In this document: in pieces, positions 2,852 through 52,046 of the stretch
How positions within the stretch are numbered: position 1 is the first letter of the stretch
Layout of the letters: every line of letters starts with the position of its first letter
From: Escherichia phage mEp515
Strand: one strand, 5' to 3'
DNA: 53,673 bases
Sequence record: PP180003
Notes under the pieces: model-generated
Told to the model about the DNA's origin: nothing
Database searches by the model: none
Seen by the model: only the letters and a program-made list of their open reading frames with translations
Program-made: the position numbers and the translations under genes

Positions 2852-3569
2852 GGTTAGATAACGCCTCGTTTATTCTATTTGATGCAATTTCGAAATATTT
2901 TTCATCCTTTTCTATGCCGATAAAACGTCGGTTAGTATTCATGCAGGCAACGCCAGTAGTTCCGCTCCCCATACAGTTATCAAGAACTAAATCACATTCG
3001 TTTGTATATGTTTTAATTAAATATTCCATAAGCGCAACAGGCTTCTGTGTTGGGTGCAGCTTCGCACTATCTCGCGGAAACTCTAGTACCGTAACTGGAT
3101 AGCGTTTTGCGCCACTCACCGTAGTTACAATACCCGATGGATTGTAATTAGTAGATGTTTCCCTCCCTTTTTTGCGTTTATACGGCTTAAATCCCTCCCT
3201 CATTTGAGGGTTGTAAGTTGGCCGCTTGTCATAGAACACCAACACGTTTTCATGATTCTTAAGCGGAACGCGTTTCGCGTTAAGAAACCCCGTTCCTGCC
3301 TCTTTGCGCCAGATCCACTCATACCGAAGCATACCAATATTTGACGCGCCTAAAACTTTATCAAACGGAGTCTGTGCAGTCAGCACGATTGCCCCACAGT
3401 TTATGCGCTTGTATTCATTCCATAAAGACGTCAAATCAATAACGCTATCCCATTTGTTCCGCGTAGTCCCATACGGCAAATCACACAAAATCAAATTAAC
3501 GCTACGATCTGGAATAGACTTCATCAACTCCAGGCAATCGCCTGGCAATAATGTAACATCTTTATTCAT
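2838..3569 (-). CDS. DNA methyltransferase, beta-class (N6-adenine or N4-cytosine)
   Basis: 243 aa; motif IV DLPY (ILCDLPYGTT) near N-terminus and AdoMet motif LDNCMGSGTTGVA near C-terminus; no partner restriction enzyme seen. Confidence 0.8.
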   Translation of the reverse strand: MNKDVTLLPGDCLELMKSIPDRSVNLILCDLPYGTTRNKWDSVIDLTSLWNEYKRINCGAIVLTAQTPFDKVLGASNIGMLRYEWIWRKEAGTGFLNAKRVPLKNHENVLVFYDKRPTYNPQMREGFKPYKRKKGRETSTNYNPSGIVTTVSGAKRYPVTVLEFPRDSAKLHPTQKPVALMEYLIKTYTNECDLVLDNCMGSGTTGVACMNTNRRFIGIEKDEKYFEIASNRINEALSNHEAN

Positions 3570-6081: not shown

Positions 6082-6588
6082 TCAGGGTAAAGAAATACCG
6101 TGATTGCTATGAAAGTTATACATTCTTTCAGCTTCTTTTCTTGCTTTTACGGCATCATCAAATGAGTCACCGTAATAAACGTACATTGTTTTCTTTTTCC
6201 CATCAGACCCCCTTATACCTATTTGCGCCCGCCATTTATGGGTTTTCTTGTTCCACGTAACGCCAACGCATCCGCTAGTATTACTTGATGGCATTGTTTT
6301 GTTTCTGTTATTCTCCTTCCTTGTCACTATCCTTAAGTTTTCGATTCTATCGTCACCAGGTACATGATTTATGTGATCTATTTCCATTCCATCAGGAATA
6401 GGGCCGTTAAACATTTCCCAGATAATGCGGTGACGCCATGTGCAACAAATACCATTAACGCGTATAGTCCAATATCCGCGATAATGTTTACATCCAGCCA
6501 CGCTACCTGCTTTTATTTTGTTATTTGCACGGTTACAAGACCAATATAGAACGCCGTCGCTATATGTAAATAAATCATCCCACATCAT
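6082..6588 (-). CDS. HNH homing endonuclease with AP2-like DNA-binding domain (copy 1 of 4)
   Basis: RIIWEMFNGPIPDGMEIDHINH...NRIENLRIVTRKENN HNH motif then AP2-like C-terminus; start set at internal Met matching paralog N-termini (MMWDDLFTYSDG); ORF-track extension to 6690 overlaps upstream gene. Confidence 0.75.
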   Translation of the reverse strand: MMWDDLFTYSDGVLYWSCNRANNKIKAGSVAGCKHYRGYWTIRVNGICCTWRHRIIWEMFNGPIPDGMEIDHINHVPGDDRIENLRIVTRKENNRNKTMPSSNTSGCVGVTWNKKTHKWRAQIGIRGSDGKKKTMYVYYGDSFDDAVKARKEAERMYNFHSNHGISLP

Positions 6589-10162: not shown

Positions 10163-10467
10163 CGTGTTTTCTCCTATGGTTAGAGTGAACGCGCGGGCGG
10201 GTATCCCATTAGCATTAGATAGCAGTGACTGACCGCTCAACAGATCCCGCCATTGCGTGATATTTGTTTTTCGCATCGCAGCGACACCGGGTTTTTAAAG
10301 AGCTTAAGGCGTCGGCCTTTTTGTGCTTTCCCTTATCTTTTTCCTTGCGTCATTGCAAGTATGGCTTTACCTTGTCAGCAAGTTTACAGAATGGCGCTAA
10401 CAGGTCAAGGCTTGAAAAACACGTTTTGTGACTTGCATCAAACTTTTTTAGGTTATAGGGTAGCGAC
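10163..10467. promoter_or_regulatory. Immunity-region intergenic switch: divergent promoters/operators between cI-like repressor and leftward early operon
   Basis: 305-bp non-coding interval between divergent genes; TTGCAAG-type half-sites; candidate -35 TGACTT at 10429-10434. Confidence 0.4.
10272..10303 (-). promoter_or_regulatory. nutR-like element (boxA-like GCTCTTTAAAAA plus short hairpin) on leftward transcript
   Basis: Minus-strand reading AGCTCTTTAAAAACCCGGTGTCGCTGCGATGCG; 26/33 identical to plus-strand copy at 19470-19502. Confidence 0.3.
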
Positions 10468-11115
10468 ATGAAAACAAAATGGTATGACTTAGCAAAGCAG
10501 CTCATGCGGGCGCAGGGCATGAGTCAGGATTCATTGGCTGATCTCATGGGGATAACCAAAGGTGGCCTTTCGCACTGGCTGAACGGTCGCCGTGAGCCAA
10601 ATCTTGAAGATATTGCGCGGATCATGCGGGCGCTTGGGCGTCGGCAGTTTACTGTCACACATGACGGGATGGTTATCGATGATTCTGTTTCTAACACGTT
10701 ACCGGGAGCGCCACCGCGTGATTTAGGCAGTTACCCGGTTGTTGACTGGAAGGATGTAGCAAACAATATGGAAGGCACATGCCGATCAACATTGCCACAC
10801 ATTACTACTAGCGTTATTTGTTCGGATGATAGTTATTGGCTGGTTGCTAAAGGTGAATCAATGAACGCACCGCAGGGGTTAAGCATCCCGGCGGGGACTA
10901 TGATACTCGTTGACCCGCACGCGCCAGCTATTGACGGAAAACTTGTTATAGCACAACTGGAGGAAGGGCAGATACCTACGTTTAAACAGTTGATTATTGA
11001 TGGAGGCCGAAAACTTTTGCGTTCACTGAATCCGTTGTATCCGCCGATCCCTATGAATCCAGAATCAAAAATCATAGGCGTGGTGGTTGATGCGAAGATC
11101 GTAAACCTGCCATAA
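10468..11115 (+). CDS. cI-like repressor (HTH_XRE N-terminus, S24 LexA-like autopeptidase C-terminus)
   Basis: 215 aa; HTH MSQDSLADLMGITKGGLSHWLNGRREP; C-terminal GESM serine motif and downstream Lys. Confidence 0.8.
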   Translation: MKTKWYDLAKQLMRAQGMSQDSLADLMGITKGGLSHWLNGRREPNLEDIARIMRALGRRQFTVTHDGMVIDDSVSNTLPGAPPRDLGSYPVVDWKDVANNMEGTCRSTLPHITTSVICSDDSYWLVAKGESMNAPQGLSIPAGTMILVDPHAPAIDGKLVIAQLEEGQIPTFKQLIIDGGRKLLRSLNPLYPPIPMNPESKIIGVVVDAKIVNLP

Positions 11116-11238: not shown

Positions 11239-11267
11239 ATTGACTCGGTGTTTTACGGGGCGTATAT
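11239..11267 (+). promoter_or_regulatory. Strong sigma70-type promoter (pL-like) for rightward early operon
   Basis: -35 TTGACT (11239-11244), 17-bp spacer, -10 TATATT (11262-11267); TACAAAATGG motif abuts the -35. Confidence 0.6.
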
Positions 11268-11522
11268 TGCGAATCAAAGGAAGGGCGTAGGTAACAAAAG
11301 CAGCTTCCTGGCACTTTAAAAATCAGGCTTAACACCTTGTCAACCGTGGAGTAACTCCCCGATGGGGGACCGAAAGCGGCACTGATAACAAGGCGCATGG
11401 GGTGTTTAAAGCGTTACATCCCCCACGAAACCGCACGCAGGGCGACGAGTCAGCTTGCTTGGAGTGAGCAAGGTCACGCCGGGAACGGCGATGATTGCGG
11501 GATTAGTTGAAAGATGTTAAGC

Positions 11523-16620: not shown

Positions 16621-16857
16621 ATGATTAATGGTTTTTTAAGCTGGTTAAGAGTGTGGTTTTTTGCCACGCTTTTCGTTTTTTTGGCGTTCAGCGGTGTCAT
16701 TGTCATATTTACGCTGGCGATGATGTTCATTACATGGTCAGTACCTGAATTTAACAATCTTGGAAGTATTTTTGCTGTCGCCCGCGCCATGTTTGCTTGT
16801 AGCGCATTTGTTGGTTTTTGTTGGAGTGTTTCGCCTGATTGGGATGATGAATGGTGA
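16621..16857 (+). CDS. Small membrane protein (two predicted TM helices)
   Basis: 78 aa; hydrophobic segments WFFATLFVFLAFSGVIVIFTLAMMFI and AMFACSAFVGFCW. Confidence 0.45.
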   Translation: MINGFLSWLRVWFFATLFVFLAFSGVIVIFTLAMMFITWSVPEFNNLGSIFAVARAMFACSAFVGFCWSVSPDWDDEW

Positions 16858-16861
16858 TCCT

Positions 16862-17095
16862 ATGGCCTTGTTCAATATGTCAGAACTGCAATTCAACGCC
16901 GTAAAAGCTGCCGCCCGCGCTGCACTTTCTGCTTGCAAAGCGGAGGTAGAGAAAAACGGCTACAGCGATAAAGCCACGCGGCTGATATTAGAAAAGCATT
17001 ATCGCAAGGTCGCCCCACTAATCAGCATTGAGCGCTTTGTGTGGTTGGTGGGGTATTTAAACAACCGTTGGGGGACGGAACAAGATTATTTCTAA
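16862..17095 (+). CDS. Hypothetical protein
   Basis: Start set at internal Met (MALFNMSELQ) to avoid overlap with preceding gene. Confidence 0.4.
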   Translation: MALFNMSELQFNAVKAAARAALSACKAEVEKNGYSDKATRLILEKHYRKVAPLISIERFVWLVGYLNNRWGTEQDYF

Positions 17096-19470: not shown

Positions 19471-19503
19471 TGCTCTTTAAAAATCCGGCAGCGCTGAAAT
19501 GCG
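19471..19503 (+). promoter_or_regulatory. Second plus-strand nut-like element (boxA-like GCTCTTTAAAAA plus hairpin GCGC-TGAAAT-GCGT)
   Basis: 26/33 identical to the minus-strand element at 10272-10304; hairpin start resembles P22 boxB GCGCUGA (from memory). Confidence 0.3.
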
Positions 19504-19532
19504 TAGAAATCACCTGAAAAGGAGAGAGCATT

Positions 19533-28161: not shown

Positions 28162-28239
28162 AATCTGACTCACAATCCCCCACAAGTTTTTCTATTTTTC
28201 GCGTAGCAACGCGTAAACATGTATTCAGGAGTAAACATT

Positions 28240-29610
28240 ATGCCATCCAATTTAGAATTGGCGGTTAATGCTGCCTTGTCTCAACGCCAGGCGGCATATG
28301 CCCGCTATGCCGCAGCCAACCCATTCACTATGGGGATAGATGCCAAACGAGATACTGCGTGGAGTGAATACGGATTCAAAGAAGAGATCACGTATGACGA
28401 TTTATACAAACTGTATCGTCGCGGCGGTATAGCTCACGGTGCTGTGGAAAAGATTGTTACAACTTGCTGGCGCACCATGCCGACGCTGATAGAAGGTACT
28501 AAAGACGAGAAAGCCGAAAAGGAAACACCCTGGGAAAGAGAAATAAAGAAACAATTCGACAACAGATTTTGGCGCGTCATTGCCGAATGCGATCGCCGAC
28601 GCCTCATTGGTCGTTATGCTGGCCTGTTGATTCACGTCAGAGATAACCAGCCGTGGGATCAGCCAGTAACAAAAGGCGTTGGCATTGCCAAATTTACCCC
28701 GGCATGGGCTGGTGCACTAACGCCGAAGGAGTTCGAAGAAGACCCGGATAATGAAAATTATGGCCTGCCGACGTGGTGGGAATACAAAGAACGCATTAAC
28801 AGTAAGACCATTGCCAGAAGAATCCACCCTGATCGCATATTCATATTTGGTGACTATTCTGATGATGCCATCGCCTTCCTTGAGCCGTCCTATAACGCCT
28901 TTGTGTCACTGGAAAAAGTGGAAGGTGGTAGTGGTGAATCATTCCTGAAAAACGCTGCCCGTCAGCTTGCTATCTCATTCGATAAAGAGATCGACTTCCG
29001 GTCACTGGCAGCCACATACGGATGCGACGTCACAGAGCTGCGCGAGAAATTCAACGAGGCAGCGGCTGAAATGAATAAGGGTAATGATGTGATGATGGCA
29101 TTACAAGGTGCAACAGTAAGCCCGCTGGTGACTGCCGTATCTGACCCGTCAGCAACCTATGATGTCAACCTGCAAACCGCAGCCGCTGGTATTGATATTC
29201 CAACCCGCATCCTGGTTGGGAACCAGCAGGGCGAACGCGCATCAACCGAAGACCTCCGCTACTTCAACAGCCGCTGTATGACCCGCAGGGAGGAAATCGG
29301 CGGCGAGCTTGAGGATTTATTCCGCAAGATGGCAGATCTCCGCCTTATCAGTATGCCAATTGACGTATCAGTAATATGGGACGACCTGAACGCCATGACC
29401 AAAGCCGAACTACTGGAAGCGGCACACAAAATGGCGCAAATCAATCAGGCTTGCCTGGCTACTGGTGAAGAAATATTTAGCGGTGACGAGATCCGAGAGG
29501 CTGCCGGATACGATGGCCCTGCCAGTGTAGTAGAAATGGAAGAGGAAAACGATGATGAAGGTGAAGAAGATAATCAGGCGAATACCTCCAGCCGCGATAA
29601 TGCCATCTAA
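28240..29610 (+). CDS. Portal protein
   Basis: About 456 aa; position after terminase; acidic C-terminal tail; start at second ATG with AGGAG SD (first ATG 28219 lacks SD). Confidence 0.8.
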   Translation: MPSNLELAVNAALSQRQAAYARYAAANPFTMGIDAKRDTAWSEYGFKEEITYDDLYKLYRRGGIAHGAVEKIVTTCWRTMPTLIEGTKDEKAEKETPWEREIKKQFDNRFWRVIAECDRRRLIGRYAGLLIHVRDNQPWDQPVTKGVGIAKFTPAWAGALTPKEFEEDPDNENYGLPTWWEYKERINSKTIARRIHPDRIFIFGDYSDDAIAFLEPSYNAFVSLEKVEGGSGESFLKNAARQLAISFDKEIDFRSLAATYGCDVTELREKFNEAAAEMNKGNDVMMALQGATVSPLVTAVSDPSATYDVNLQTAAAGIDIPTRILVGNQQGERASTEDLRYFNSRCMTRREEIGGELEDLFRKMADLRLISMPIDVSVIWDDLNAMTKAELLEAAHKMAQINQACLATGEEIFSGDEIREAAGYDGPASVVEMEEENDDEGEEDNQANTSSRDNAI

Positions 29611-30501: not shown

Positions 30502-30999
30502 GTGAATGAAATGATTAACTGGCATGATTATTTCACGTATAAATCCGGGCGTCTTTATTGGAAAGTAAAACCAAAACACGGAAGGGTTTGTGTTGGTGAT
30601 CTTGCTGGTTGTGTGTGCGGTACGACATCATACAGGGTAATACGCTACAAACAAAACCGGTATTTGGAACATCGTATCATATGGGAGATGCACAACGGCC
30701 CGATCCCTGAAGGTTACGAGATAGATCACATTGACCATAACACGCTAAATAACGATATAACGAATCTAAGAATGGTAACCCATCACGAAAACACACTAAA
30801 TGCGTCAATGCGGAAGGATAATAAAAGCGGTTGCGTCGGTGTTATTTGGCACAAGGCGCGCCGTAAATGGATGGCGTACATAGCTGTGAATAAGAAGCCA
30901 AAATATTTAGGTTTATTTGACAGCATAGATGAGGCCGTAGCTGCCCGCCGACAGGCTGAAAAAGAGAACAATTATCACCAAAATCACGGGAGTGTTTAA
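30502..30999 (+). CDS. HNH homing endonuclease with AP2-like domain (copy 2 of 4)
   Basis: HRIIWEMHNGPIPEGYEIDHIDHNTLNNDITNLRMVTHHENT plus AP2-like C-terminus; GTG start with GGGAG SD; inserted between head genes. Confidence 0.8.
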   Translation: MNEMINWHDYFTYKSGRLYWKVKPKHGRVCVGDLAGCVCGTTSYRVIRYKQNRYLEHRIIWEMHNGPIPEGYEIDHIDHNTLNNDITNLRMVTHHENTLNASMRKDNKSGCVGVIWHKARRKWMAYIAVNKKPKYLGLFDSIDEAVAARRQAEKENNYHQNHGSV

Positions 31000-36869: not shown

Positions 36870-37229
36870 TTAGTTGAAATACGCATCAACTCTGTGGGCC
36901 ACGTTTACACCATAAGACTCGCCATCCTTAAACGCATTTAGTGACGCTTTATTATTTTTTGCCGCCTCTTTTAATCCATTGTACTTGCTATTAAGATCTT
37001 TCCATTCAGCGGTTTTTTCTAATACTGGCTTCATTGCGTAATGAATACAGCCAACGTTAAATGGCATTTCCAGATCACCATTACCGTCACCATGCTTTAT
37101 ATCGTACAACTGAGCATTATGCGCACATTCACGAAGTATGTATTTTGCAGACGGAGAGTGCTCAGCATTAGCATTAAGCGCAACCCCTGCAAGTACCGCC
37201 ACGATTAAGATTTTTGCCAGACTTTTCAT
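36870..37229 (-). CDS. Secreted/periplasmic protein of unknown function (opposite-strand moron in tail operon)
   Basis: 119 aa; signal peptide MKSLAKILIVAVLAGVALNANA with AxA cleavage site; two Cys in mature part; minus-strand terminator hairpin at 36837-36856. Confidence 0.6.
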   Translation of the reverse strand: MKSLAKILIVAVLAGVALNANAEHSPSAKYILRECAHNAQLYDIKHGDGNGDLEMPFNVGCIHYAMKPVLEKTAEWKDLNSKYNGLKEAAKNNKASLNAFKDGESYGVNVAHRVDAYFN

Positions 37230-37331: not shown

Positions 37332-37488
37332 TTTCTTATCCTCTTTTGCTTCCTCCGGTCAATCCGGTCTTTTAAATCCCTTTGCTCTATCCCTTTCCTT
37401 TATCTTCTTTATACAAAATGTACTCGTTGAAGTGAAGCCATTTTGTATAAAATAGAGACATAGATCACATTTTGTATGAGGTTAAATC
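37332..37488. promoter_or_regulatory. Divergent regulatory region with three TACAAAATGTA-family motifs and TAGATCACA
   Basis: Motif copies at 37412-37422 (perfect palindrome), 37439-37449, 37468-37477. Confidence 0.4.
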
Positions 37489-40400: not shown

Positions 40401-40644
40401 ATCTCGAAACGGTGAACAGTATATGATTCCTGGTGACAACGGCAGGGTAATACCAAATCGCGACATTGGTGGTGCGGGTGGTGGTAACGTTAGTATAAAC
40501 GCACCGATTAGTGTTTACCCACAAAATGGATGGAGTGATGAGGACGCCAAAAAACTACAGCAGGATATGGAAAAGATCTGCATGGGCCTGATACACCGCG
40601 AATCATCCAGACCGGGCGGAATGCTGCAACCGCGCCGCAAATAA
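37489..40644 (+). CDS. Tail tape measure protein
   Basis: 1051 aa; long coiled-coil/Ala-rich protein with Gly-rich C-terminus. Confidence 0.85.
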   Translation: MSTNLGTIYYEVDAKTGQLLTVQREVDRATGKMEKDLERVDSAATQASKSLSKLSSIASALGAAMAAKKIIEYANAWQEVNNRLINSVRAGESLADVNQRVFQIAQNSRSDLDATADLYGKLERSTRDAGLSTKALGDMVETINKTFRISGASAAEAEGGIRQLGQSLAKGVLNGDEFNSVTENATRLSEGLAKSLGVSSAEMRKMAAEGKITREAIIKALKEMKAEVDAEFSKLTPTMQEAFTVAGNNAAKFFGSNSSIMGGIGAFNSAVVTLSENLNEIATAFIGLATVMGGRVVNKFVAATAEALTNAQATRAQTAAARQAAQSELALANAQVVSARQSAAAAAARLREAQAYAAANAGTKFEVQTLKELAVAKAQNTAASNSLTAAEQRLAAAHTAAAANAGLLKTAFSATLGAIGGIPGALMLAVYGLTSYVDHVDQTAEANRNLADSVDVSTESLERMSKAAKLAGADKLQISMGQLEEDIASLNKQIDQDTQALELNKQALEKAEEGSRAYANLSKANQEITARLTREEAQREDILDRLNQMQRKYILLMQDTDPLMKTLATSLGLVADAYGRITTEAERAAAATQHASAALNADQQELMNLANRRLELAKLDSKTASREKAIDGFKREAEKANLTGEAYEKYMATMTKAYDTEQKRAEAERKASHGKKTGESEEKKHLKEAERLRKELEKRGQNVADKYNVEAAAQRKLKEDQDALNAALKSGKISAEQYNKAWKELIGTEEQRKRQAGWDNLVNNELQLRGQLDPIQQAMNEWAVRKQMLTDLGATEQYMREQEKAHEREMLSLQWERYKAQSLTNQLLGDAVDAMSGSATNALVGLINGTQNWQQAIANIGNTILSSVIGTIVQMGTEWVKQQLIGDTARTMATTKALAEAAALSSAWATPAYLANVATMGGAGATGLTGLTTGVAAAKTLGLAGARYNGGAVNGGSLYRVGEHGKPEIFQSRNGEQYMIPGDNGRVIPNRDIGGAGGGNVSINAPISVYPQNGWSDEDAKKLQQDMEKICMGLIHRESSRPGGMLQPRRK

Positions 40645-40648
40645 TCAA

Positions 40649-40680
40649 AACCCCGGCGCAATGCCGGGGTTATTTTTATT
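40649..40680 (+). terminator. Rho-independent terminator after tape measure gene
   Basis: AACCCCGGC-GCAAT-GCCGGGGTT hairpin plus ATTTTTATT; near-identical stem to terminator at 33798. Confidence 0.75.
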
Positions 40681-40855
40681 CAATTTCATCATTTTTAAAT
40701 TCGCCGTTTGCATAAAGCTGTAATGCTCTTATCAGTTCGTCAGCTTGCTTTTTGTCTATTACAATCATCTCGCAGTCGCTAACGATCCATAATCTTCCGT
40801 CATCTTCAATACTAAGATCAATCCTTCTACATTCTTCAGTATCATGAATAATCAT
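40676..40855 (-). CDS. Small ORF (59 aa, acidic)
   Basis: Not in ORF track; weak SD. Confidence 0.25.
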   Translation of the reverse strand: MIIHDTEECRRIDLSIEDDGRLWIVSDCEMIVIDKKQADELIRALQLYANGEFKNDEIE

Positions 40856-40893
40856 TATAAACCTTCATCATGTTATTGATTTCGTGAATAAAT

Positions 40894-41064
40894 TTACTCA
40901 AATCTTGTATATCCTCTCTCAATTTTCCCTCCGTGTACACTTCTGGCAAATACCGCGTCAGTATACCTAAAAAATGGGCATGTATATGTATCCCCTTTAC
41001 TATCCATATATTTTAGCACCCATGCTATGCGTTTTACGTTGCTTTTATTTGCCGGATTTTTCAT
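40894..41064 (-). CDS. Hypothetical small protein (56 aa)
   Basis: Internal ATG with GGAGG SD. Confidence 0.35.
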   Translation of the reverse strand: MKNPANKSNVKRIAWVLKYMDSKGDTYTCPFFRYTDAVFARSVHGGKIERGYTRFE

Positions 41065-41327
41065 TTTATTTTTCCTCCGCAAATCACAACCTGCCGTTTC
41101 TTGCTATGTAGCTGCGAGCAAACATCACCTGCCAGATGTTCCAAATCTCACGCCACGTAAATTTATCATCTTCCATATCTCACCCCGTCGCGCTTGTATG
41201 GTTCGCCATCAGCAAACGGGATTAACTCATCGTTTGCCACCATTCGATTAAACCAGTCTTTAAGAATAACCAGGGAGAACCGGATCCCGTAACTGTGCAA
41301 TTCGCGCCACCTCATTTATGTGCCACC

Positions 41328-41834
41328 CTATTTACCGTGATTTGGATGAAAACCGTATTTAATTTCGGCTTCTTGCCTTGCCTTGATTGCATCATCTTTG
41401 CTTTTGAATACCCCTAAATGTTTTAATTTTCCGTTGATTCTGATAACTGCGCACCATTTACGCAATCTTTCAAGCCAATAAACACCAGCACAGCCGGATT
41501 TATTATTATGGTTGCGACTTCTGTTGTGGTTATTGTCTTTGCAGGTAACTAGCCGCAAATTTTCTATATGGTTGTTTACCTTATTGTGATCGATATGATC
41601 TATTTCCATTCCTTCCGGGATTGGTCCGTTGTGCATTTCCCATATAATTCTATGCTCTTGGTATATCCTCCTGTTAAACCCTACATGTATATACCCACTT
41701 CGTTTATGAAGGCACCCGGCTCGCTTTCCCGCATATCTTGAATTCCAGGTTTTGGAAACGCCATTTCTTGGCTTCCATAATATAGCGCCGTCACTGTATA
41801 TAAAATAATCATTCCAGTTAATTACTTGTGACAT
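41328..41834 (-). CDS. HNH homing endonuclease with AP2-like domain (copy 3 of 4)
   Basis: HRIIWEMHNGPIPEGMEIDHIDHNKVNNHIENLRLVTCKDNN plus AP2-like C-terminus. Confidence 0.8.
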   Translation of the reverse strand: MSQVINWNDYFIYSDGAILWKPRNGVSKTWNSRYAGKRAGCLHKRSGYIHVGFNRRIYQEHRIIWEMHNGPIPEGMEIDHIDHNKVNNHIENLRLVTCKDNNHNRSRNHNNKSGCAGVYWLERLRKWCAVIRINGKLKHLGVFKSKDDAIKARQEAEIKYGFHPNHGK

Positions 41835-42076
41835 CCGCGCACCCCTGACAATTCATTAAATTTGTGATGCTCGACGATTACCCATGCTTTCAAGTCCTGG
41901 CTATAAACACGCCAATCTAAATTGGCGCGGAAGGCGTAGCCGTAGCCGTCCTTTAATTTTTTGGGTGCAACATCCTTGTTTAAAAACGCGTTCAGAAGTG
42001 CTTTTGCTTTTTTGATTACGTGTCCAGGTGCGTTTTTCTGTGCTTTCAGGTTTTTACCAATCGCCACCAATTTCAT
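41822..42076 (-). CDS. Hypothetical basic protein (84 aa)
   Basis: Lys-rich; start MKLVAIGKNLK. Confidence 0.45.
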   Translation of the reverse strand: MKLVAIGKNLKAQKNAPGHVIKKAKALLNAFLNKDVAPKKLKDGYGYAFRANLDWRVYSQDLKAWVIVEHHKFNELSGVRGCHK

Positions 42077-42093
42077 AACACACCCCACAATCC

Positions 42094-42249
42094 ATTAGCT
42101 GACCACTTTCAGGAAGAAATCACGGTACTCATTTTCCTTCGCATTCATCATGAATTGACCGTATTTGAATGCGTCATCAAAGCCTTTAACTATCGCCACT
42201 TCCACCTGTTCGAATGCGTTGTTCAGCATTACCACTACATAACGCTTCA
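42094..42249 (-). CDS. Hypothetical small protein (51 aa)
   Basis: Not in ORF track; AAGGGGG SD. Confidence 0.35.
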
Positions 42250-42419
42250 TGTTGGCCCCCTTTGTCGGTACTGCTTTTTCTTCTTGCTTACTATATACAT
42301 CTTGTCACGCCTTATGTGAAGCCATTTTGTAAACTGGTTATAATTCTTGTGATGAATTTCTCATTTTTCGCGTAGAAGCGCGTAAAGATGTATGCAATAT
42401 GTAACTTATAGGGGGAATC

Positions 42420-42773
42420 ATGCCAGAAGTTTTCAGATGGACGCCGCAAAGAAGCTACAGCGTGACCAGGGAACCAAATGTGTCTGTCATTAAACTTGGT
42501 GATGGGTATGAACAGCGCCAGGCGAAAGGGATTAACACATTGCTTGACAGCTACACCCTGGTCTTTAAAGGCAGTAGCGCAGGATGCGGTGATGGTGGGA
42601 ACGTGGCGATCCAGGCAGAAGCATTCTTGAGGGCGCGCGGCGCTGTCGATGCTTTCTACTGGACGCCTTCGATGGATGGGGTGCAAAGGCTTTTCGTTTG
42701 CCGTAGCTGGAGCATGACCAAAGACGGGCCTGTGTACACGCTAAACGCAACGTTTGAACAAGTTGTTGGCTAA
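42420..42773 (+). CDS. Minor tail protein M (lambda gpM-like)
   Basis: 117 aa; FRWTP...GDGYEQRQ...FYWTP...ATFEQVVG matches lambda gpM landmarks as I recall them. Confidence 0.85.
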   Translation: MPEVFRWTPQRSYSVTREPNVSVIKLGDGYEQRQAKGINTLLDSYTLVFKGSSAGCGDGGNVAIQAEAFLRARGAVDAFYWTPSMDGVQRLFVCRSWSMTKDGPVYTLNATFEQVVG

Positions 42774-42784
42774 TGGGGGTTGTT

Positions 42785-42970
42785 ATGTACGGGACTTGTG
42801 TAGTTGACAAAACTTACGCTTTTACATTGTTTGACGACTATGAGATCAACGACCTTACTGTAAAGGCTGACAATGGCGATACATGGTATCTTCATGATGT
42901 TGGTGATGGTTATGTGGGATGCAGATCCAGAGAAGGCAAGGAGGTTTTATTTTTGGTTGATGGCGTATAA
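42785..42970 (+). CDS. Hypothetical small protein (61 aa)
   Basis: ATG with GGGGG SD. Confidence 0.35.
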   Translation: MYGTCVVDKTYAFTLFDDYEINDLTVKADNGDTWYLHDVGDGYVGCRSREGKEVLFLVDGV

Positions 42971-42974
42971 TAAC

Positions 42975-43000
42975 AACCCCGCTTCGCGCGGGGTTTTCTT
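42975..43000 (+). terminator. Rho-independent terminator
   Basis: AACCCCGC-TTCGC-GCGGGGTT hairpin plus TTTCTT. Confidence 0.7.
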
Positions 43001-43001
43001 G

Positions 43002-43139
43002 TCAGTAGTTAATGTGCATCAAACTCATTGGGTGAGCGTGCGCCATGTTGTTTGCTATTGCCGCCCAGTCCCAACCAGCAGCGTGAACACCAAATACGAT
43101 CAAGCCCATTATTATTAGCGCCAAAACTTCTATTTTCAT
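43002..43139 (-). CDS. Small membrane peptide (45 aa)
   Basis: AGGTGA SD; MKIEVLALIIMGLIVFGVHAAG TM segment. Confidence 0.3.
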   Translation of the reverse strand: MKIEVLALIIMGLIVFGVHAAGWDWAAIANNMAHAHPMSLMHINY

Positions 43140-43149
43140 AATCTGTCAC

Positions 43150-43398
43150 CTATAAGTTATCACGCAGATAATTAACGCCCTTATCAGTAACGAATGAATG
43201 GTTGACCTGGTTTTCATCCGTCATGATGATGAATAACTTTTCCTGTAGGTATTTCGCTTTCGGGTACAGTGTTAAACAGACCTGGTACAGTATCCCGCGC
43301 TCAATCAGCAAATGAATAAATTCGTGTTCATGATAACCGATAAGGCGGGCGGCCTGTTTCAACGTGTACACATAATCCCCGTGATTACGCCGCGCCAT
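43150..43398 (-). CDS. Small HTH DNA-binding protein (82 aa)
   Basis: HTH-like YTLKQAARLIGYHEHEFIHLLIERGIL. Confidence 0.5.
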   Translation of the reverse strand: MARRNHGDYVYTLKQAARLIGYHEHEFIHLLIERGILYQVCLTLYPKAKYLQEKLFIIMTDENQVNHSFVTDKGVNYLRDNL

Positions 43399-43407
43399 AC
43401 TCCCACC

Positions 43408-43758
43408 CTATTTATTGAACGCAGACAAATTGTCGATACAGAAATCTTTAGCCGCTTTTTCGTATTCACGTTTTGCTTCAGGATCGTCAGCCGGGAAACC
43501 TTTTGCGTGTATTTCGCCAGGGCAAGACTGATCCATAGAATCAGCAAATTCAACATTGACGTTAAAGTTAATATCTTTCGGGTTCATCTCTTCCACCTTA
43601 TCCGGTACTTGGACCGGAGTAATATCAAAATCACGATAGTTAAACCCACAGCGAAGTAATTCACGACCTTCATCACGCGCCGCAGCATATGTGTCAAATA
43701 GGCCCATGCGTTCCCATCCGCATTTATTGGTAAACACGTCTAAACTGTATTTTTGCAT
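43408..43758 (-). CDS. Hypothetical protein (116 aa)
   Basis: ORF; no motif recognised. Confidence 0.5.
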   Translation of the reverse strand: MQKYSLDVFTNKCGWERMGLFDTYAAARDEGRELLRCGFNYRDFDITPVQVPDKVEEMNPKDINFNVNVEFADSMDQSCPGEIHAKGFPADDPEAKREYEKAAKDFCIDNLSAFNK

Positions 43759-43770
43759 TTTGTTAACCTC

Positions 43771-43926
43771 TCATTTGACGGGTTCGATCTCGTACCCCAA
43801 AACGCGTTCGTCTTCAGCAAGTAAAAGCGCGTCAACCAGCGCATCGCCTTCATCTTTATACAGGGCCACAAGCATTTCCCTGCCATCAGCCAGGAACACC
43901 GTCAACCTCCACACCTTATCATCCAT
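43771..43926 (-). CDS. Small acidic protein (51 aa)
   Basis: Internal ATG with strong GGAGGTG SD; first gene of minus-strand island. Confidence 0.4.
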   Translation of the reverse strand: MDDKVWRLTVFLADGREMLVALYKDEGDALVDALLLAEDERVLGYEIEPVK

Positions 43927-44053
43927 CGCACACCTCCGCGCCATTTTGTTAACCCTGCTTCCTTTTGAGTACAATATACATATTGTAAAAAGCGCTATCA
44001 ACCGTTTTGGTATGATTTAGCGTGACGTAGATCACAAATTGCAAGGTGATAAA

Positions 44054-44758
44054 ATGCGCAGCATACCTACAGAAATGATTATTGATTCCGTGGATGCCGG
44101 AGTCGGCGCGGTAATTGACTTGTTTGAATTAGACCTCACGCCCCTGGGTGGCGAGGTTATCCGCTTCCATTCCGGCGCGAATGGCTATTACGGCCCGGTT
44201 ATCTGGAAGGGGGTGGCCTACAACAGCTACCCAATCGAGGCGACTGGCTTCGAAATGAAAAACGAAGGCGTTTACTCACGCCCACAAATGGTAGTAGCCA
44301 ACATCGGCGGGCTAATCACCGGGATGAATAACGATTTTAACGACCTGCGAGGAATGAAGGTTACGCGCCGCCAGGTGGAGGTAAAATACCTGGACGCCGT
44401 TAATTTCCCCAACGGCAACCCGGATGCAGATCCATCTATTGAGGCTGTGTCTTTTTACGTCGTTGAAGCGATGAGTGAAGAAACAGCCGACCAGGTGCAA
44501 TATGAACTGTCAACGCCAATTGATGCTGATAAGGCGGTTATCCCTGGGCGCACAATTCTCGCTGACGTTTGCCAGTGGCAATATCGCGGCGACGGTTGCG
44601 GATACAGTGGCGGCCCTGTAGCTACAGATAAAGACGAATCGACCAGCGATCCAAAACTGGATAGATGCAGCCACCGCCTGAGCGGTTGCCGTTTGCGTTT
44701 TCCGCGCCCCAACCCGTTACCAATTTCCTGTTTCCCGGGATCAAGCAAGGTGGGTTGA
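44054..44758 (+). CDS. Minor tail protein L (lambda gpL-like)
   Basis: YLDAVNFPNGNPDADP, ADVCQWQYRGDGCGYSG and Cys cluster CSHRLSGCRLRF parallel lambda gpL. Confidence 0.9.
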   Translation: MRSIPTEMIIDSVDAGVGAVIDLFELDLTPLGGEVIRFHSGANGYYGPVIWKGVAYNSYPIEATGFEMKNEGVYSRPQMVVANIGGLITGMNNDFNDLRGMKVTRRQVEVKYLDAVNFPNGNPDADPSIEAVSFYVVEAMSEETADQVQYELSTPIDADKAVIPGRTILADVCQWQYRGDGCGYSGGPVATDKDESTSDPKLDRCSHRLSGCRLRFPRPNPLPISCFPGSSKVG

Positions 44759-44760
44759 TT

Positions 44761-45492
44761 ATGGCGCTTGAAGATAAAATGATTCGCTATGCCGCAGCAC
44801 ACCCGGAAGAGGAGGTGTGCGGGCTGGTGATAGATAACGATTATTTTTACCCGTGCTTAAACGTGTCTGAAACGCCGCACAACAGCTTTAAAATATCGCC
44901 TGACGATTATATCAAAGCTGACGAATTAGGCGTTATAACCGCCGTTTTTCACTCCCATACTGACAATTCGTTGATATTGTCAGCACGGGATCGACAACAG
45001 CAGGTTATTTCCGGCCTGCCGTGGTATTTGTGTTCCGGCGGCAGGGTTAGAAAGTTCCGCCCGGTGGCGCACCTGTTGGGCCGTAAATTTGAACACGGTA
45101 AAACAGATTGTTACTCGCTTTTCCGTGACGCATATCACCTATGCGGCGTGGATCTGCCCGACTTTGAGCGCCACGATGGGTGGTGGCTGCGTGGGGAAAA
45201 CCTGTACATAAAAAACCTGCCATTGAACGGGTTTTTCATGGTTGACGCGCAAAGCATTCAGCCAGGTGATGTGATTATTCGCCAGCCTTTTAAAGGCGCT
45301 GACCCATGTCACGCGATGATTTACCTGGGCGATAACACCGTTTTGCATCATGACAATGCCGGACTGTTAAGCCGCCGCGAGCAAATGCGGCCAGCTTATG
45401 TTAGGCAAACGCATTCAATATGGAGATCTGACAAATGCTCAAATTTAGATTTACGGGCAATCTTCGAAGATATTACGGCAAGGTGTGTTTAA
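44761..45492 (+). CDS. Tail assembly protein K (lambda gpK-like; MPN/JAMM plus NlpC/P60-like)
   Basis: VFHSHTDNS (HxH) and later Cys/His pair; position after L. Confidence 0.8.
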   Translation: MALEDKMIRYAAAHPEEEVCGLVIDNDYFYPCLNVSETPHNSFKISPDDYIKADELGVITAVFHSHTDNSLILSARDRQQQVISGLPWYLCSGGRVRKFRPVAHLLGRKFEHGKTDCYSLFRDAYHLCGVDLPDFERHDGWWLRGENLYIKNLPLNGFFMVDAQSIQPGDVIIRQPFKGADPCHAMIYLGDNTVLHHDNAGLLSRREQMRPAYVRQTHSIWRSDKCSNLDLRAIFEDITARCV

Positions 45493-45977: not shown

Positions 45978-46544
45978 GTGAACTGGTCTGAATTGTTTGT
46001 TTATGATGAAGATTCTCCTTCATGTTTAAGGTGGAAAGTCACCGCTAACAGCAGAACGGCGAGGACTGGCGATGCGGCAGGAAAAATAGTAGCGGCAAAA
46101 AGCGGCAATAAGTACTGGAAAATCACATGGAAGGGCCGTCGCTATTATGCTCACCGGATTGTTTACGAATTATGCAGTGGCAGAAAATTAAAACGCAGTG
46201 AGATCATCGATCACATTGATGGTAATGGGCTTAATAATAAATTCAATAACATACGCGTAACAGATAAAAAAGGTAACGCCAGAAATATGACCATAGGTCG
46301 CGCGACAAGGGAGAGCGGATTGCCATTTGGGATATGTTGGCACGCAGAAGGGAGATCTATTAGAGCACGTATCACCGCTGATAACGACAAAAGAGTTAGT
46401 AAATCATTTAGCGTTATAGCGTGCGGTGGACTTGAAATGGCTATTAATGCCGCCGTCGCGTGGCGGTCATTCATGATTGAAGAGCTAAATAAAGCTGGCG
46501 CAGGATACACGAAATTACACGAAACAGGGGGTTTATATGTCTAG
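45978..46544 (+). CDS. HNH homing endonuclease with AP2-like domain (copy 4 of 4)
   Basis: AHRIVYELCSGRKLKRSEIIDHIDGNGLNNKFNNIRV; GTG start with GGGGG SD; inserted between tail genes I and J. Confidence 0.75.
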   Translation: MNWSELFVYDEDSPSCLRWKVTANSRTARTGDAAGKIVAAKSGNKYWKITWKGRRYYAHRIVYELCSGRKLKRSEIIDHIDGNGLNNKFNNIRVTDKKGNARNMTIGRATRESGLPFGICWHAEGRSIRARITADNDKRVSKSFSVIACGGLEMAINAAVAWRSFMIEELNKAGAGYTKLHETGGLYV

Positions 46545-50758: not shown

Positions 50759-51703
50759 TTAATAAATTACTGGCAAATAAGGAAGATTCATACCTATACA
50801 GAAATCCGGCCTGTTACCTATTTCATACCTGACAATCCTTGATCCTGTTCCGCTTTTCACCTGCCCGTTGTACATCATAATGCCTTTGTATCTTAGTTCC
50901 TTGTATGCTGATATAGCTCTAGTATTAAAGCCGCATCTCAATATTGGGAAGAACGCGTCACCTATTGTCTGGTAACTATTCGATAACGCTATAAATCCCT
51001 TAACAACCAATGGCCTTTGTTTTGTTGAAAACACGCATTGATTATTTTTATTAATGATGGTTATTCCGTCGCCAGGTGATGGCGGTGATTTGCTAAAAAT
51101 AGCCAAATTCATCGTTACCGATCCATATGTGTCACCAGTTGCAGAAGTGTTTGTGTTTGTACAGATCAATTTATTGTTTCCGTCAAACTCAACTGAAACA
51201 CCGCTATTGCTCCAGTTACCGAAAGGAACACCGGCAACTGGCATAGTGTAAGAACCATTAAAGCTAACACTCCCAACCCATAAACATGACATCAATGTAT
51301 CGTTAGTCGTTATCGATGCAAAATCTGTGCTATCTGCAACTAATATACCCTCACCAGTAGACGCCTTTGCTATCTCAAACACGCTACCGCTAAAATTAGT
51401 GATCCTATCAGAATATGCGTTCTCACCACTAATTGAAATCCTTGCCGTGCCACCAGAAGCACTAAAGCCTGATATAAAATATGTTTCAACACCCCTGTCA
51501 AGCTCAAACGCGTAAGCGCCTACCTTTGGGATTAGAAACTTATCGCCGCCAGTTAAATCCTTTATGGAAAAACTTTGCGAAAACCCAGCATTTTGAATAT
51601 TGAAATCTCCAGCGTGTGAGAACGCACGCAACCCGCTTGTTATTTCCATTGCAGGGCGTCCGTCATTCAGCCCAATATATATACCCGCCCCCATTAGTAC
51701 CAC
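50759..51703 (-). CDS. Hypothetical beta-rich protein (314 aa), opposite strand between J and side tail fibre
   Basis: Ser/Thr/Gly/Asn-rich; no signal peptide recognised; start overlaps upstream lipoprotein gene. Confidence 0.5.
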   Translation of the reverse strand: MVLMGAGIYIGLNDGRPAMEITSGLRAFSHAGDFNIQNAGFSQSFSIKDLTGGDKFLIPKVGAYAFELDRGVETYFISGFSASGGTARISISGENAYSDRITNFSGSVFEIAKASTGEGILVADSTDFASITTNDTLMSCLWVGSVSFNGSYTMPVAGVPFGNWSNSGVSVEFDGNNKLICTNTNTSATGDTYGSVTMNLAIFSKSPPSPGDGITIINKNNQCVFSTKQRPLVVKGFIALSNSYQTIGDAFFPILRCGFNTRAISAYKELRYKGIMMYNGQVKSGTGSRIVRYEIGNRPDFCIGMNLPYLPVIY

Positions 51704-51912
51704 TCCTTACTTCCGCAATCTCTAGTCTTGCCACTATGACCATCAGTGCCATCATAAACGCGACAGATCTCACCGGACGGAACCTTAGCCCCGTCAACCC
51801 ATCTTTCATAGCAGACACCGTATGCGCTAGTTGCACAATGGCCGTTGTGTCGATTAGTGTCAGCGCAACCAACCAGAATAGCCGCAACAGCGATAATTGT
51901 TACCATTTTCAT
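51694..51912 (-). CDS. Small Cys-rich lipoprotein (candidate Llp/Cor-like superinfection-exclusion lipoprotein)
   Basis: 72 aa from MKMVTIIAVAAILVGC (lipobox LVGC); six further Cys; GGGGTG SD; adjacent to receptor-binding genes. Confidence 0.5.
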   Translation of the reverse strand: MKMVTIIAVAAILVGCADTNRHNGHCATSAYGVCYERWVDGAKVPSGEICRVYDGTDGHSGKTRDCGSKEWY

Positions 51913-52046
51913 TAGTACACCCCACTCAGATTGTGTGTATTTGTTGCTTTGTTTATTATAATATACATTTTGTATAAGCATAAAATGCAACATAGATCAC
52001 AAAATGGTAGAATTATTCCGTTAATTAACATAATGGAGTCATTGCG

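Follow-up and report, generated by a model that had tools for sequence, protein, structure and literature searches.

In Escherichia phage mEp515 (sequence record PP180003), of which a stretch of 53,673 nucleotides was analyzed and is called the window here, four small open reading frames (ORFs) of 51, 116, 82 and 45 amino acids lie on the minus strand at 43002-43926, between gpM/orf61 and gpL, as read from the ORF list and the sequence. We refer to this block as the island and to its genes, in their leftward order, as p51, p116, p82 and p45. By sequence comparison, the window is a mosaic relative of Enterobacteria phage mEp021: region 42400-44800 is 97% identical to mEp021 and 88-94% identical to mEp013, mEp554, mEp044, mEp010 and MagusPhagus. 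Together these phages form the mEpimmI group, published in 2025 (PMC11893012). The features of the locus, in window coordinates, are as follows.

42420-42773, plus strand: gpM (PF05939, 2.4e-29)
42785-42970, plus strand: orf61, 61 amino acids (phrog_3249), between gpM and the island
42975-42995, both strands: predicted bidirectional intrinsic terminator, a G+C-rich stem of 8 bp with a T-rich tail on each strand
43002-43139, minus strand: p45, 45 amino acids, hydrophobic N-terminus
43150-43398, minus strand: p82, 82 amino acids, stand-alone ANT/KilAC domain by domain search, the most conserved gene of the island
43408-43758, minus strand: p116, 116 amino acids, acidic (isoelectric point, pI, 4.6), two modules
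43771-43926, minus strand: p51, 51 amino acids, acidic (pI 4.2), GGAGGTG 5 nt before the ATG, in the first and exchangeable slot of the operon
43940-43950, plus strand: copy of the recurrent motif, GCCATTTTGT(T), oriented with gpL and opposite to the island
43970-43987, both strands: operator-like palindrome, TACAATAT-AC-ATATTGTA, a perfect 8+8 match read in the sequence
43973-44001, minus strand: predicted sigma-70-type island promoter, with -35 TTGATA (44001-43996), a 17-nt spacer and -10 TATATT (43978-43973)
44054-44758, plus strand: gpL (PF05100, 5.8e-72)

All four ORFs are real genes under purifying selection. Compared at the codon level with 9-12 related loci, the ratio of nonsynonymous to synonymous differences (pN/pS) is 0.10-0.32 for p51, 0.06-0.44 for p116, 0.04-0.25 for p82 and 0.02-0.47 for p45, with gpL at 0.03-0.07 for comparison, and p45 differs from its mEp013 counterpart by 11 synonymous changes and a single nonsynonymous one. 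The genes are separated by gaps of only 9-12 nt, each is preceded by a Shine-Dalgarno sequence, and the G+C content of the island is 43-46% compared with 51-52% in the tail genes. An earlier sequence-only reading of this DNA had described four small opposite-strand genes between gpM and gpL, headed by an acidic 51-residue protein with a strong Shine-Dalgarno sequence; its coordinates proved exact, and both properties of the first protein are borne out by the values listed above. It mentioned neither orf61 nor the terminator at 42975-42995, which is common to the gpM-orf61 unit on the plus strand and the island on the minus strand and also carries a terminator annotation in mEp013 and, for both strands, in mEp021. 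It had also put the block forward as its strongest candidate for an undescribed accessory system; as sequence, the island is already annotated in the published genomes of mEp021 and its relatives. In the GenBank annotation of mEp021, gp71 is a "putative antirepressor" and gp73 and gp74 are hypothetical; the counterparts in mEp013 are gp96-99; and a "phage antirepressor protein KilAC-like" stands among the manually defined core genes of 48 genomes (PMC11893012).

Mapping the island onto 57 compared loci, which include the window, six phage isolates, six E. coli prophages and 44 IMG/VR contigs (~52-57 kb, with L056 as the exception), we found that the gene order is conserved in 56 of them. Starting from gpL, the first slot is occupied by p51, by a diverged p51b type or by an unrelated 52-residue protein; this is followed by p116, an optional 75-residue insert, p82, an optional 67-residue insert and, where present, p45, with orf61 and gpM at the far end. 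The alternative first genes, the two inserts and the presence of p45 are the only variation; the 75-residue gene, for example, is found in mEp021 and not in the window. In contrast, p116 and p82 are each present in 56 of the 57 loci, p82 with 89-99% identity, and of 5426 complete E. coli genomes, 34 contain the island, each time in the chromosome. Since the same p116-p82 core recurs in nearly every locus, the island, as far as these comparisons tell, is fixed in the mEp021-like lineage and is not a hotspot of swapping cargo. The sequence-only reading had taken this part of the tail operon for a typical location of defence or exclusion cargo, which the fixed content of the locus does not support; it had also named beforehand, as grounds for its own refutation, a lack of conservation of the ORFs as a block, and here the retained order speaks in its favor.

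Morons in late operons, such as HK97 gp15 and lambda lom and bor, are usually sporadic among relatives. Judged in silico, the island resembles them in being an autonomous promoter-gene-terminator unit of lower G+C content between conserved structural genes. Unlike them, it is found in 56 of the 57 loci and in all full-length relatives examined, comprises several genes and is transcribed against the tail genes. The island is also a recombination mosaic: gpL and p51 of the window have the same DNA sequence as in mEp021, for p116 and gpM the proportion of synonymous differences (pS) against mEp021 is ~0.25, gpM is identical to that of the NZ_CM136176 prophage, and the junction within the island is that of p51 and p116 at 43758-43771.

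Domain searches indicate that p82 is a stand-alone KilAC domain and nothing besides. Residues 10-82 match PF03374 (ANT/KilAC) with 28.9 bits against a gathering cut-off of 25.3 (E 1.5e-6), the family contains only seven clusters (72-95% identity), and the nearest relatives outside the group are the C-termini of Rha/Ant antirepressors from Vibrio, Cronobacter, Hafnia and Stx phages; a PDB sequence search with p82 was empty or gave E >0.3. p82 carries TDKG (residues 71-74), an instance of the TxKG motif with T71, D72 and G74 invariant, while AARLIG (residues 16-21) is only similar to the AKxLxL motif in a by-eye comparison made without the CreP or KilA sequences. The residues of both motifs are conserved in the stand-alone KilAC protein CreP and in P1 KilA (bioRxiv 10.1101/2024.01.05.574328).

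The sequence-only reading had presented p82 as a helix-turn-helix (HTH) regulator. The HTH-like core is seen in the structure model; the role of regulator is called into question by the ANT/KilAC domain, by its effector-like precedents and by the character of one helix. p82 is near neutral (pI 7.9), and its putative recognition helix, EHEFIHLLIERG, as read from the sequence, is acidic and hydrophobic and seems unlike a base-reading helix, which argues weakly against DNA binding. As for the precedents, the KilAC domain of Listeria AriS is able by itself to suppress the SOS response, with RecA as the probable point of action (PMC9043618). The 103-residue CreP is bacteriostatic, makes cells of both A. 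baylyi and E. coli filament and shows weak co-precipitation with FtsZ (bioRxiv 10.1101/2024.01.05.574328), and the KilA domain of phi11 Gp07 still inhibits growth (PMC5944126). By analogy, these published effects point to a protein-directed, effector-like action. Moreover, p82 is as conserved as the tail proteins, and this would fit an invariant target, such as FtsZ, RecA or a repressor; the CI-like repressor of the mEpimmI group is 96% conserved.

The likeness of p82 to these proteins has clear limits. CreP from Acinetobacter baylyi ADP1 is, like p82, a single-domain ANT/KilAC protein of ~80-100 residues derived from phage antirepressor C-termini; compared by description, without the CreP sequence, p82 shows the TxKG motif (TDKG) and, at its N-terminus, a helix of the A(K/R)xL type. 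CreP, however, belongs to a CRISPR-Cas locus, where a guide resembling CRISPR RNA represses it, whereas p82 lies in a tail region behind two acidic ORFans. AriS from Listeria phage phi10403S and the antirepressors of Ant/KilA/Gp07 type also bear a PF03374 domain at the C-terminus (PMC9043618; PMC5944126); unlike these two-domain proteins, p82 is without an N-terminal AntA, Bro-N, pRha or KilA-N domain and belongs to a Gram-negative host.

The predicted island promoter, TTGATA-17-TATATT, agrees with 10 of 12 consensus positions and is the top sigma-70-like match within 40500-44900; across 13 loci, its -10 is invariant and its -35 is either TTGATA or TTGATC. The 127-bp intergenic region around it (43927-44053) has a p-distance of 0.00-0.14 to 12 relatives, compared with synonymous divergence of 0.0-0.55 in gpL and 0.11-0.31 in p82, and is thus two- to fourfold less diverged than neighboring synonymous sites. 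Its leftward promoter match agrees with the earlier description of this region as a divergent promoter region.

The palindrome at 43970-43987 lies across the -10 element of the island promoter and across a TACAAT in rightward orientation. Related copies are present at 42289-42306 (three mismatches) and 51957-51974 (two mismatches), making three matches versus 0.47 expected, and both sit in the other divergent regions that head leftward units: the former lies upstream of a first opposite-strand island (island 1, 40676-42250, minus strand) and the latter upstream of the gene of the lipoprotein Lpp (~51694-51912, minus strand). The three leftward promoters, of island 1, of the island described here and of Lpp, have the core ACAAnATGTATATnnTA in common, 40-60 nt before the first ATG, suggesting that the three units may be under common regulation; the same core is the likeness between the island and the Lpp unit of mEp021-type phages. 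Two simpler identities of the palindrome were rejected: it reads ACAA-N8-TTGT and not CTGT-N8-ACAG, as a LexA box would, and likeness to CI operators was dropped, as no similar dyad was seen in the immunity region. An Rfam scan of the island region yielded nothing significant.

A recurrent motif, GCCATTTTGTA, occurs with at most one mismatch in 11 copies compared with 1.76 expected, a number reached in none of 100 shuffles (positions 2380, 6067, 10385, 11229, 18547, 19378, 19442, 29425, 37437, 42321 and 43940). Of the 11 copies, eight lie between genes, and their orientation matches the downstream genes, those at 37437, 42321 and 43940 pointing with gpH, gpM and gpL, respectively. Copies adjoin early promoters and nut sites and precede gpH, gpM and gpL, and the motif frequently runs on into a TAnAnT hexamer. 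To judge from its distribution, it may act as a promoter element or as the site of a regulator; a canonical -35/-10 element at fixed spacing was rejected, given the inconsistent distance to the best -10 hexamers. Thus, the motif that the sequence-only reading had noticed at the island is real, but its copy at 43940-43950 points with gpL and not with the island. No change in this copy is seen across 13 loci, including those with another first island gene, and, since motif orientation follows the downstream genes, it more probably serves gpL.

These elements could be read as part of a unit that regulates, or is accessory to, the expression or assembly of the tail, in which p82 would control the divergent gpL promoter and similar promoters of gpM and the fiber gene. 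The core-gene status of the island, its fixed position adjoining gpL, the constrained intergenic region, the palindrome lying over candidate -10 elements on both strands and the similar elements upstream of gpM and the fiber gene would all agree with such a unit. Against it, lambda-type tail modules function without genes like those of the island, and p51 and p116 are fast-evolving, unlike assembly factors. In addition, gp69-gp74 are not mentioned in the main text, at least, of the study that reports 16 virion proteins of mEp021 found by mass spectrometry (PMC11893012). We consider a role in the tail module very unlikely.

The two genes ahead of p82 are, according to these database searches, acidic ORFans limited to E. 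coli phages and prophages. p51 matches phrog_29559, a family of unknown function, and its 35 clusters among 5.8 billion sequences come exclusively from E. coli or its phages; in the same set, p116 forms 57 clusters, and the p116 profile has 14 representatives among 1.84 billion. Fold searches with p51 and p116 gave no specific match to anything of known function, and PDB searches with their profiles were empty or gave E >0.3. The name "transporter" given to p51 by the Prokaryotic Genome Annotation Pipeline was rejected as unsupported for a soluble, acidic protein of 51 residues. p116 consists of two modules. The N-terminal beta-beta-alpha-beta domain (residues 1-50) is modeled with a predicted local distance difference test (pLDDT) score of ~90 and varies strongly, the 57 loci having 20 different versions of it. 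The C-terminal module starts at a nearly invariant M58 and comprises SMDQSCPGEIHAKGFPADDP plus a helix, with an almost invariant SMDQSCPGEIHAKGFPADDPEAKREYEKAAKDFCIDNL; its residues 62-88, the most conserved stretch of the protein, are modeled as disordered and are followed by a single helix. Conserved yet disordered in the model, this stretch is what would be expected of a segment that folds on a partner. In a separate observation, the p116 profile (residues 76-102) matches OmpA-like repeats (CEGHAKGQPADDNEAKRKLS...) in two large proteins, P0104 and P0107, with HAKGxPADDxEAKR in common; the likeness could be due to chance or to a borrowed beta-loop-helix fragment.

The small, acidic first gene and the tight gene coupling raise the question of a toxin-antitoxin or addiction pair, p51-p116 or p116-p82, that would stabilize the prophage, and island 1 has a like layout, with a 51-residue gene followed by a ParE-like toxin; KilAC proteins, too, can be toxic. 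p116, however, is acidic, unlike typical basic toxins, matches no toxin family in Pfam, NCBIfam or PADLOC and no toxin fold, and remains intact in L054, where p51 is replaced by an unrelated protein; nor was an antitoxin-type DNA-binding domain found. An alignment of p51 with the p116 N-domain by hhalign reached a probability of only 5.9%. Such a pair therefore seems highly improbable. On the same alignment, together with the absence of any BLASTP alignment, the idea that p51, the 51-residue protein of island 1 and the p116 N-domain are paralogues was set aside as unproven. Joint loss of p51 and the p116 N-domain was also rejected: the truncated p116 of L006 reflects a single nonsense codon, and L054 combines an alternative first gene with an intact p116.

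A conserved gene behind variable ones also recalls the acr-aca operons of Pseudomonas Mu-like phages, in which small variable genes, a conserved HTH gene and a strong promoter with an inverted repeat lie among morphogenesis genes. If the island were an autoregulated anti-defence operon of this type, p51, p116 and the optional genes would inhibit immunity, and p82 would be an Aca-like winged-helix repressor acting on the palindrome. The layout agrees in several respects: inside a structural cluster, a strong promoter-like site with a perfect 8+8 palindrome over its -10 is followed by small acidic proteins and a conserved HTH-like gene, then by the optional 67-residue insert and p45, and the upstream slots vary (p51, p51b or the 52-residue protein, the p116 N-variants and the 75- and 67-residue inserts) against a p82 that hardly does. 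The p82 model resembles MerR/Xis DNA-binding domains, and the p116 C-module is found in small-gene clusters of other phages, including the rV5-like contig described below. In contrast, the conserved gene of the island encodes ANT/KilAC, which to our knowledge is not among the recognized Aca families; the putative recognition helix is acidic in a protein of pI 7.9; hardly any member is without p116 and p82, so that variability is modest compared to true acr loci; and the PHROG matches of the island proteins have no known function. We regard this reading as unlikely.

p45 has a hydrophobic N-terminal segment followed by VHA|A, which may serve to anchor it in the membrane or as a signal peptide that is cleaved off. 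Of the 57 loci, 41 have p45, in allelic forms of 45 and 38 residues, with a first codon other than ATG in seven copies, and its allele type shows no correlation with the p116 variant. A supposed p45 paralogue at 10744-10771 was rejected as a nine-residue chance match inside the CI-like repressor gene. Outside the island, the p116 C-module also exists as a separate gene of 56-60 residues in small-gene clusters of other phages. In L056, a 121-kb IMG/VR contig resembling rV5-like Vequintavirinae, a 60-residue p116 C-module is followed directly by a p45 homologue of 58% identity (2962-3292), with no KilAC gene near the pair. This arrangement suggests that the p116 C-module and p45 form a portable two-gene unit common to temperate phages and a probably virulent coliphage, which argues against a lysogen-specific function.

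That argument bears directly on the proposal of the sequence-only reading that the island is prophage-encoded defence or exclusion cargo. In one version of such a role, KilAC would be a growth-arrest (abortive-infection) toxin, held in check until superinfection releases it; in another, the membrane peptide would be active in exclusion. In its favor, the island is a moron-like unit with its own promoter and terminator and lower G+C content, and p45 is a small membrane-type peptide. A ParE-like toxin pair and the exclusion lipoprotein Lpp are the products of neighboring units that also run leftward, and all three promoters have the common core; Lpp of mEp021 has been shown experimentally to be an exclusion protein (PMC11893012). 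By analogy, the stand-alone KilAC protein CreP acts as a conditional growth-arrest toxin in an immune context. On the other hand, PADLOC-DB 2.0 contains no family matching p51, p116, p82, p45 or orf61 at E <=1, NCBIfam has no significant match for any island protein, and the island has no enzymatic effector. Unlike swapping hotspots, its content is fixed across 56 of the 57 loci; p45 is missing from 16 loci and lacks an ATG in seven copies; and the p116 C-module and p45 recur in a contig resembling virulent phages. Defence cargo is a rather improbable explanation, and none of these analyses shows the island to be a defence system.

The sequence analysis shows the genes, their conservation as a block, the domain assignment and the constrained promoter-like and terminator-like elements; we infer when the island would be expressed, what it would target and what phenotype it would confer. 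With a confidence short of even, we favor a host-modulation operon of the kil/ant type that benefits the phage. It would be a self-contained leftward operon, in which a sigma-70-type promoter under an operator-like palindrome drives four translationally coupled genes up to a hairpin terminator common with the gpM unit. p82 would be its conserved anchor and would act by binding a protein target and not as a classical DNA-binding regulator; candidate targets are the host cell-division machinery, the RecA/SOS machinery or the conserved CI-like repressor of the group. p51, p116 and p45 may serve as co-effectors or modulators, the variable parts of which would track variable partners.

Antirepressor regions of comparable position are known in P22 immI (mnt-arc-ant) and P1 immI (c4-icd-ant-kilA). 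The island resembles them in having an antirepressor-family gene behind small genes, away from the primary immunity region and within or next to late genes. Unlike them, it has no Arc/Mnt-type ribbon-helix-helix repressor or antisense RNA detectable with Pfam and Rfam, and p82, unlike Ant, is a C-terminal domain only.

Several points weigh against a kil/ant-type operon. The PF03374 match of p82 is only 3.6 bits over the threshold, identity to the nearest antirepressor relatives is 30-38%, and the HTH-like core of the model has a weak likeness to MerR/Xis-type winged helices, so that the model and the promoter palindrome together would also be compatible with p82 as a DNA-binding autoregulator. 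What we propose for p51, p116 and p45 is guesswork, and the published assays on this phage group covered only the repressor, the receptors, the integrase sites and Lpp (PMC11893012). Furthermore, a KilAC protein made from a constitutive sigma-70 promoter might be toxic in a lysogen, in which case the operon would need repression or neutralization. A bolder proposal, which we hold to be unlikely, is that the island is a new immune-conflict module built on a minimal KilAC protein, either a p82-autoregulated anti-defence operon whose p51 and p116 inhibit E. coli immunity or a CreP-like toxin, p82, released on superinfection. In either case, the hypervariable p116 N-domain would set specificity, and the p116 C-module and p45 would be a portable pair also found in the contig resembling virulent rV5-like phages.

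Other features of the window deserve mention beside those of the island. Island 1 begins with the 51-residue gene (42095-42250, phrog_29810) and the ParE-like protein (41822-42088; PF24732, 31.4 bits versus a threshold of 24.4; pI 10), continues with an HNH endonuclease (41328-41834) and small ORFs, and has a predicted promoter, TTCACA-17-TATATA, at ~42295-42323; the first two genes recur as a pair among relatives, and the remainder of island 1 is variable. Related HNH endonuclease genes or fragments lie at 41328-41834 (minus strand), 45978-46544 (plus strand), ~6096-6432 and ~30667-30780; one copy stands between tail genes I and J, and mEp013 is without it. A fourth leftward gene (36870-37229, minus strand), between the tail chaperone-like and tape measure genes, encodes 119 residues with a signal peptide and no Pfam match, and its divergent region holds an inverted pair of the recurrent motif (37403-37456). 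A 34-nt leader-like repeat, ATTTTTCGCGTAG.A.CGCGTAAA.ATGTAT.CA, is found at 28194-28227 and 42363-42396 with 88% identity, preceding a large ORF (28219-29610, plus strand) and gpM, and the gpM copy is largely kept in relatives.

In the early region, nut-like sites, in which a hairpin comes after a boxA (GCTCTTTAAAAA), lie at 10267-10303 (minus strand), 19472-19508 (plus strand) and ~11311 (plus strand). Their positions, on either side of the CI-like repressor gene (10468-11115) and behind a methyltransferase-like gene, agree with published work, which gives mEp021 three nut sites; a promoter resembling PR, TTGACT-17-TATATT, is located at 11240-11268. The haemolytic phenotype of mEp021 lysogens has been attributed, in its published description, to the protein ORF-4/Ipe; a search for Ipe inside the island led instead to an ORF at 16844-17095 (plus strand), with nested starts giving 83, 82, 77 and 72 residues, which fits that description.

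The tail module of mEp021-like phages is thus interleaved with four leftward units, two of which, the ParE-like pair and Lpp, point to conflict functions. These phages are reported to be as common as lambdoid phages in a Mexican collection of phages from human feces (PMC11893012). The island is a well-delimited, testable locus, and p82, judged by its domain match, adds a new stand-alone protein to a known domain family. Solving the KilAC operon would give a role to a stand-alone coliphage KilAC protein, whether in damping the SOS response, blocking division, antirepression or interfering with immunity, and would also assign a function to two ORFan families. Its significance would rise if the operon turned out to be an immune-conflict module.

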